64,000 bases of DNA from Naegleria gruberi (lineage: Eukaryota). This document shows positions 44,265 to 45,182 of the stretch, in pieces. Numbering within the stretch: position 1 is the stretch's first letter; each line of letters begins with the position of its first letter. Under the pieces are notes generated by a model that made no database searches, was not told the origin of the DNA, and saw only the letters and a list, made by a program, of their open reading frames with translations. Made by a program: the position numbers and the translations under genes. The stretch lies in assembly GCA_000004985.1 (NCBI GenBank), contig GG738923.1; one strand, given 5' to 3'.

Positions 44265-45182
44265 TTAGTTACCACCTCTCAATCTCAAGACCAAGTGAAG
44301 GGTTGATTCCTTTTGAATGTTATAGTCAGAAAGGGTTCTACCATCTTCCAATTGCTTACCAGCAAAGATAAGTCTTTGTTGATCTGGTGGAATACCTTCC
44401 TTATCTTGAATCTTGCTCTTAACATTTTCAATAGTATCATTAGATTCGACTTCAAGGGTAATTGTCTTACCAGTGAGAGTCTTGACGAAGATTTGCATAC
44501 CACCTCTAAGTCTCAAAACCAAGTGGAGAGTGGATTCCTTTTGAATATTGTAATCAGACAAAGTTCTACCATCTTCCAATTGCTTACCAGCAAAGATAAG
44601 TCTTTGTTGATCTGGTGGAATACCTTCCTTATCTTGAATCTTGCTCTTAACATTTTCAATAGTATCATTAGATTCGACTTCAAGGGTAATTGTCTTACCA
44701 GTGAGAGTCTTGACGAAGATTTGCATACCACCTCTAAGTCTCAAAACCAAGTGGAGAGTGGATTCCTTTTGAATATTGTAATCAGACAAAGTTCTACCAT
44801 CTTCCAATTGCTTACCAGCGAAAGATCAATCTTTGTTGATCTGGAGGGATACCTTCCTTATCTTGAATCTTTGACTTGACATTTTCAATGGTGTCGTTTG
44901 ATTCAACTTCCAGAGTGATTGTCTTACCAGTCAAAGTCTTGACAAAATTTGCATACCACCTCTCAATCTCAAAACCAAATGCAAAGTAGATTCCTTTTGA
45001 ATGTTATAGTCTGAGAGGGTTCTACCATCTTCCAATTGCTTACCAGCAAAGATCAATCTTTGTTGATCTGGAGGGATACCTTCCTTATCTTGAATCTTGC
45101 TCTTAACATTTTCAATGGTGTCGTTTGATTCAACTTCCAAGGTAATAGTTTTACCGGTCAAAGTTTTAACGAAGATTTGCAT
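44265..45182 (-). CDS. Polyubiquitin of four head-to-tail units plus a terminal Asn. The second unit is frame-disrupted.
   Basis: Ubiquitin units of 76 aa ending LRLRGG, with the final unit ending GGN-stop. The encoded ubiquitin has S19, N20 and S28. Unit 2 (44954..44727) carries a -1 indel at about 44945 and a +1 indel at about 44822. Confidence 0.8.

Follow-up and report, generated by a model that had tools for sequence, protein, structure and literature searches.

A four-unit polyubiquitin array whose second unit, as assembled, is frame-disrupted by two single-base indels

The minus strand of the window (the whole 64-kb stretch of DNA analyzed here) carries a polyubiquitin gene of four head-to-tail units, the second of which is thrown out of frame by a single-base deletion and brought back into the original frame by a single-base insertion. 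The array is a true mosaic, best explained by a single unequal crossover in an ancestor of three units. As for the two indels, we hold it about evenly balanced that they are a real and very recent lesion, possibly confined to one haplotype and possibly produced by error-prone synthesis during recombination. An error in the consensus sequence comes close in probability, and we lean slightly toward the real lesion because the window otherwise looks accurate and damage is also present in the neighboring NHL gene.

The gene begins with an ATG at 45182 and ends with the TAA listed in Table 1. Its units are each exactly 228 nt long and follow one another without spacers, and a single Asn codon stands 3′ of unit 4. 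Tandem Repeats Finder reported a single array at 44270-45182 with a period of 228, 4.0 copies and 91% matches. Units 1, 3, and 4 lie in one frame and encode the identical 76-aa ubiquitin (100% identity); the ubiquitin of every unit ends in LRGG, and that of unit 2 is likewise 100% identical, but is spread over two frames. When repaired in silico, the four-unit protein showed 96% identity to named polyubiquitins carrying PF00240, and a homolog search with it returned generic polyubiquitins only, at no more than 96% identity, a result that is uninformative as to lineage or orthologs. The locus is thus a canonical stress-type polyubiquitin gene, with 228-nt units and an extra C-terminal residue, that evolves by unequal crossing-over and gene conversion. 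It resides in the AT-rich genome (GC ~34%) of an intron-poor eukaryote. On the opposite (plus) strand, a 188-aa ORF (44313-44879) spans units 4 to 2, which in all likelihood reflects the codon bias of the repeat and is not a gene.

Table 1. Features of the polyubiquitin locus (coordinates are those of the window).
Feature	Coordinates	Strand	Remarks
Polyubiquitin gene	44265..45182	-	Four 228-nt units, terminal Asn codon AAC (44270-44268) and TAA (44267-44265)
Unit 1	44955..45182	-	Intact; encodes 76-aa ubiquitin
Unit 2	44727..44954	-	Frame-disrupted; length still 228 nt
Unit 3	44499..44726	-	Intact; 5′ 164 nt as in unit 4, 3′ 92 nt as in unit 2; likely recombinant
Unit 4	44271..44498	-	Intact
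-1 site	44943..44948	-	ATTTTG; intact form ATT TTY G (Ile3-Phe4); base missing in or next to T run 44947-44944
+1 site	44820..44820	-	Extra C at Phe45 (ATCTTT-C-GCT); original frame restored; directly 5′ of perfect repeat
Premature TGA	44931..44933	-	Closes first ORF (ubiquitin + MQILSRL)
Shifted-frame stretch	44821..44946	-	Encodes ubiquitin residues 4-45 with zero amino-acid change
Perfect 257-nt direct repeat, first copy	44563..44819	-	Offset 228
Perfect 257-nt direct repeat, second copy	44335..44591	-	Offset 228
AATAAA motif	44260..44265	-	Overlaps stop codon; putative polyadenylation signal

Alignment of the units located both changes. Near its start, unit 2 has ATGCAAATTTTGTC in place of the ATGCAAATCTTCGTC of units 1, 3, and 4, with one base fewer and one synonymous C>T; 124 nt farther on, it reads GATCTTTCGCTGG where the other units read GATCTTTGCTGG, with an extra base at 44820. 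The original prediction, which had described a 1-nt deletion near the start of the unit and a 1-nt insertion about 120 nt downstream, was therefore accurate on both counts. It had also stated that translation from unit 1 ends after MQILSRL, and this agrees with the ORF at 44931-45182, whose 83 aa comprise one ubiquitin and these seven residues before the stop; that the first ATG yields only one ubiquitin holds for the sequence as assembled. No single uninterrupted ORF of the kind typical of polyubiquitin genes runs through all units, owing to the TGA at 44933-44931. A tblastn search using one ubiquitin as query showed unit 2 to be split between frame -2, with residues 4-45 (44946-44821), and frame -3, with residues 45-76 (44822-44727), at 100% identity in each. 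At the two sites an intact unit 2 is expected to read ATTTTYGTC and ATCTTTGCT (or ATCTTCGCT), with GTCAAGTCAAAG marking its private variant. Versions of the first site can be told apart by GCAAATTTTGTCAAGAC versus GCAAATTTTTGTCAAGAC or GCAAATTTTCGTCAAGAC and those of the second by GATTGATCTTTCGCTGG versus GATTGATCTTTGCTGG, and the private string of unit 2 is AATGTCAAGTCAAAG.

After in silico repair, any two of the four units differ at 12-33 nucleotides and at no amino acid. There are no nonsynonymous changes in the 304 codons of the array and no damage besides the two indels; unit 2 has even switched its serine codon at Ser28 from AGC to TCA. The private variants of this unit occupy columns 39, 42, 78, and 82-84, within 30-55 nt of both indel sites. 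During its evolution, unit 2 was thus a ubiquitin-coding sequence kept under strong purifying selection. Because the differences between units are all synonymous, the indels should be younger than any amino-acid change in the array. An old, decaying polyubiquitin pseudogene could be read into the -1 and +1 disruptions of unit 2, the damaged neighboring gene and the breakpoint in synteny described below, but we consider it extremely improbable. At the ratio in which substitutions and indels usually arise, a gene that has gathered two indels should already carry many amino-acid changes; the codons of the array instead give no sign of relaxed constraint, and neither the start codon nor the terminal extension, the stop or the AATAAA is damaged. 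The lack of amino-acid changes therefore rules out an old pseudogene; a very recent lesion and a consensus error would each agree with it.

Over columns 1-84, unit 2 is a third sequence type that departs from unit 1 at 14 positions and from unit 3 at 16; over columns 85-164 it matches unit 1 exactly except for the extra C. On the 3′ side of that C (44819-44727), unit 2 is identical to unit 3 only, and unit 4 differs there at 12 positions. The first 164 columns are, in turn, identical between units 3 and 4. The perfect 257-nt repeat arises because the 3′ identity of units 2 and 3 joins the 5′ identity of units 3 and 4; a 35-nt stretch is common to all four units. Unit 2 had been predicted to be a chimera, produced by unequal crossover or gene conversion, with a 3′ end (44727..44820) of the unit-3/4 type and a middle of the unit-1 type. 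The mosaic was indeed shaped by recombination, but the likeness at the 3′ end holds for unit 3 and not for unit 4, that in the middle is limited to columns 85-164, and unit 2 need not be the chimera, since unit 3 fits that role. A three-unit ancestor [a-p][b-q][c-r] would have become [a-p][b-q][c-q][c-r] by one unequal crossover between units 2 and 3, with the crossover point within the 35-nt stretch shared by all units. On this single-crossover model, unit 3 would be the recombinant and unit 2 an old unit, and the gain of one unit would also account for the perfect 257-nt repeat at an offset of 228. Changes in unit number by unequal crossing-over, together with concerted evolution, are established for polyubiquitin genes; Plasmodium polyubiquitin has one to eight units, and polymorphism in unit number is known elsewhere too (PMC10457151). 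The original prediction had also offered assembly collapse as a cause, which we discarded: collapse alters the number of units and creates no -1/+1 pair. Since it changes copy number and not frame, any artefact here would be a consensus or polishing error.

Under such an error, the organism would possess an intact four-unit (or three-unit) gene, and the indels would have come from the merging of reads from near-identical units or from two haplotypes that differ in unit number. We regard this as a serious candidate, if somewhat short of an even chance. Tandem repeats are a known place of consensus errors, and the shifted frame codes for ubiquitin perfectly, with no nonsynonymous change among the differences between units. 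The first site, in a T run, may be a T5 stretch miscalled as T4. The second falls within the 35-nt stretch common to all units and at the edge of the 257-nt perfect repeat, where the placement of reads is most ambiguous, and the fact that this perfect tandem repeat was resolved inside a long contig suggests long-read data. On the other hand, the second indel is most parsimoniously a C inserted between T and G, which is not a homopolymer error, and the private variants of unit 2 lie so near both sites that reads should be placeable and polishing should have worked. The 83-aa ORF is absent from public assemblies, including the sample with the close strain described below; this agrees with an artefact but carries little weight, as the contigs there are short.

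Searches for independent sequence across unit 2, by product look-ups and in the JGI metagenomes and IMG/VR, found none. Exact-product look-ups gave no record of the 83-aa truncated ORF, the 153-aa ORF of units 3-4, the 532-aa and 658-aa neighboring ORFs or the 194-aa NHL ORF. In the JGI metagenomes the exact unit-1/2 pattern had no match, and a degenerate 12-residue protein pattern had a single match, to an unrelated di-ubiquitin contig (L006); two unit-specific patterns had no match in IMG/VR. The di-ubiquitin contig (JGI contig Ga0247722_10009921, positions 1501-1962) carries a two-unit ubiquitin gene with the same rare 12-residue variant and no terminal extension; its neighbors are a DUF4116-like ORF and another that has a TnpB-like zinc-finger motif. 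The contig may stem from a giant virus or another protist.

The base accuracy of the window looks high. Two contigs from an independent, short-read metagenome (L001 and L002; run ERR1078381, project PRJEB11402) represent a close strain and are 98.6 and 98.4% identical to window positions 45510-47519 (2 kb). Gaps in these alignments are confined to one intergenic patch, and exons and introns contain no homopolymer or indel discrepancies despite several 5-base homopolymers, which counts against a consensus error in unit 2. So does the state of the long ORFs in the 64 kb, all of which are intact; ORFs of 500-825 aa run uninterrupted across the window. There are eight other junctions between same-strand ORFs in different frames, and the four of these that were inspected proved to be either the canonical 35-nt intron of the CLC gene described below or what look like boundaries between genes. 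The 2-kb contig match, the intact long ORFs and the inspected junctions all contradict the idea of general homopolymer error across the window.

The upstream neighbor of the array is TRIP13/Pch2 (45545-46880, minus strand), and a protein from the same metagenome run matches its 234-aa exon ORF at 100% identity. A single coding difference was seen in this gene, at position 46583, where the window has TCG (Ser) and L001 (position 924) has TGG (Trp). Two homologs (P0004 and P0013) carry W at this residue (KQWILP, NHWVLP), making the allele of the window the unusual one. The TRIP13 Walker A motif GPPGTGKTSLCKG (46412-46267, minus strand) is restored only when two micro-exons, GAACAG (46368-46363, 6 nt) and GAAAG (46315-46311, 5 nt), are spliced in between GT..AG introns of 43, 47, and 43 nt; the spliced product agrees with the same two homologs (GPPGTGKTSLCKALAQKL). 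Synteny with relatives, in which a WD40 gene is followed by TRIP13, ends right past the TRIP13 stop (45510-45548; L001-L005). In three of these relatives (L003-L005) TRIP13 is 83-88% identical and other genes lie downstream, and both contigs of the close strain terminate at 45510. The end of synteny and the shared contig end put the polyubiquitin/NHL block at a point of rearrangement or variation.

Directly 3′ of the array, an NHL-repeat reading frame (43357-44220, minus strand) begins ~45 nt past the ubiquitin stop, without an ATG. Between IYIAD and IRNVF (~44135) 13 nt are missing, a 1-nt frameshift follows at ~43527 (AATCCA before the shift and TTGTTG after it), and the frame runs on into an intact 532-aa NHL/EGF ORF (41758-43356). 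Either the 5′ part of the 532-aa gene is degenerate here, or the assembly is locally at fault. No homolog of the 194-aa NHL ORF was returned at E<=1e-60, a threshold that is probably too strict for partial matches. Identity between the NHL region and its paralogs within the window is only ~70%, so a polishing failure related to repeats would not explain its lesion, and a 13-nt loss is atypical of consensus error and points to real decay here. Frame lesions thus cluster within 43.5-45.0 kb, at a locus that is dynamic, as seen from the perfect 257-nt repeat, the end of synteny at the 3′ end of TRIP13 and the close-strain contigs that stop at 45510.

On the favored reading, a very recent unequal crossover brought a three-unit array to its present four units. 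If the indels do exist in the organism, one haplotype would have gained these two single-base changes in unit 2 at about the same time, and error-prone repair synthesis accompanying the recombination may have been the source of both indels. Some features sit less easily with a real lesion. Beyond the indels, the array shows no damage, and two independent indels so close together without any substitution are improbable by ordinary neutral decay; one complex event or a very short time would thus be needed. Because stops lie between the two sites, the second indel would have brought no benefit, and the exact compensation in length has no selective explanation.

A real defect might also be bypassed in expression, either by splicing out unit 2 as a 228-nt "unit intron" (AGAG|GTGGT in units 1 and 2) or by ribosomes that shift -1 and then +1. 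An AGGT occurs at column 222 in all four units, and excision from column 224 of unit 1 to column 223 of unit 2 would delete both indels in frame. For human UBC, excision of entire 228-nt units through dual-specific AGGT splice sites at the unit borders is documented (PMC10809524). At the +1 site, a Phe codon (TTT) precedes a CGC codon. Nevertheless, we give bypass very little credence. The would-be intron is 228 nt of coding-like sequence and starts with GTGGTA, without a G at +5, whereas all five local introns identified are 35-55 nt long, AT-rich and begin with GTNNGT; identical sites in every unit would, moreover, fail to single out unit 2. Introns of this genome appear in general to be 35-55 nt long with GTNNGT 5′ sites. 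A CLC chloride-channel gene (57444-57400, minus strand) has a very short intron of 35 nt (GTAAGT...ATAG). An intron that repairs unit 2 was therefore rejected, as the sites do not fit and the stretch is perfect ubiquitin coding sequence with synonymous changes only. Programmed frameshifting was rejected as well: the 0-frame codons at the -1 site (CAA ATT TTG) provide no X XXY YYZ slippery heptamer, and two programmed shifts merely to make ordinary ubiquitin lack a rationale. Also very unlikely, in our view, is the fuller proposal that real indels are the footprint of mutagenic repair synthesis behind the one-unit duplication and/or that the broken unit would be excised through the AGGT border sites as a unit intron, by analogy with human UBC, with a multi-unit precursor being kept.

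As encoded, the mRNA would yield one ubiquitin with a seven-residue tail (MQILSRL) and an intact Gly75-Gly76. Deubiquitinating enzymes cut any polyubiquitin junction or terminal extension, and they would be expected to remove this tail at Gly76 to give normal ubiquitin. The next in-frame start for the intact units is the ATG of unit 3 (44726). Since it lies behind the stop and several out-of-frame ATGs, reinitiation is unlikely, and units 3 and 4 would be effectively untranslated. A real lesion would thus lower the yield of ubiquitin at this locus from four to one per transcript, and it would offer a snapshot of an array that had only just undergone an unequal crossover and been disabled by a lesion, showing the turnover of unit number and unit quality under concerted evolution. 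Should the indels prove to be an artefact, they would be a local consensus error in need of repair in the annotation, where the gene would otherwise be called as an 83-aa product and a fragment. Neither outcome alters what is known of ubiquitin genes.

Both the kind of gene and the kind of defect (or error) are already known. UBB+1, the frameshifted product of human ubiquitin B, was reportedly described by van Leeuwen and coworkers in 1998. Its frameshift occurs at the level of the transcript, and the product has lost Gly76 and can be neither cleaved nor conjugated. In both UBB+1 and the present gene, a frameshift at the junction of units 1 and 2 leads to one ubiquitin with an aberrant C-terminal tail; here, however, it is the DNA sequence that is altered, Gly75-Gly76 is kept and the tail should be removed normally. 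The array resembles other polyubiquitin genes (yeast UBI4, human UBB/UBC, protist pUb) in its spacer-free 228-nt units with identical 76-aa products, its one extra C-terminal residue (Asn here), its synonymous-only divergence and its crossover/conversion mosaics (PMC10457151), and it differs from them in having one internal unit out of frame and its long ORF broken after unit 1. Set against the polymorphism in unit number known from such genes, the 257-nt repeat at an offset of 228 is the footprint expected of a one-unit gain, but this gain is too recent to show any difference and adjoins a frame lesion. Finally, every unit here has AGGT at its Arg74/Gly75 codons, with a spacing of 228 nt, as at the unit borders of human UBC (PMC10809524), although the candidate site here misfits the local 5′ splice pattern GTNNGT.
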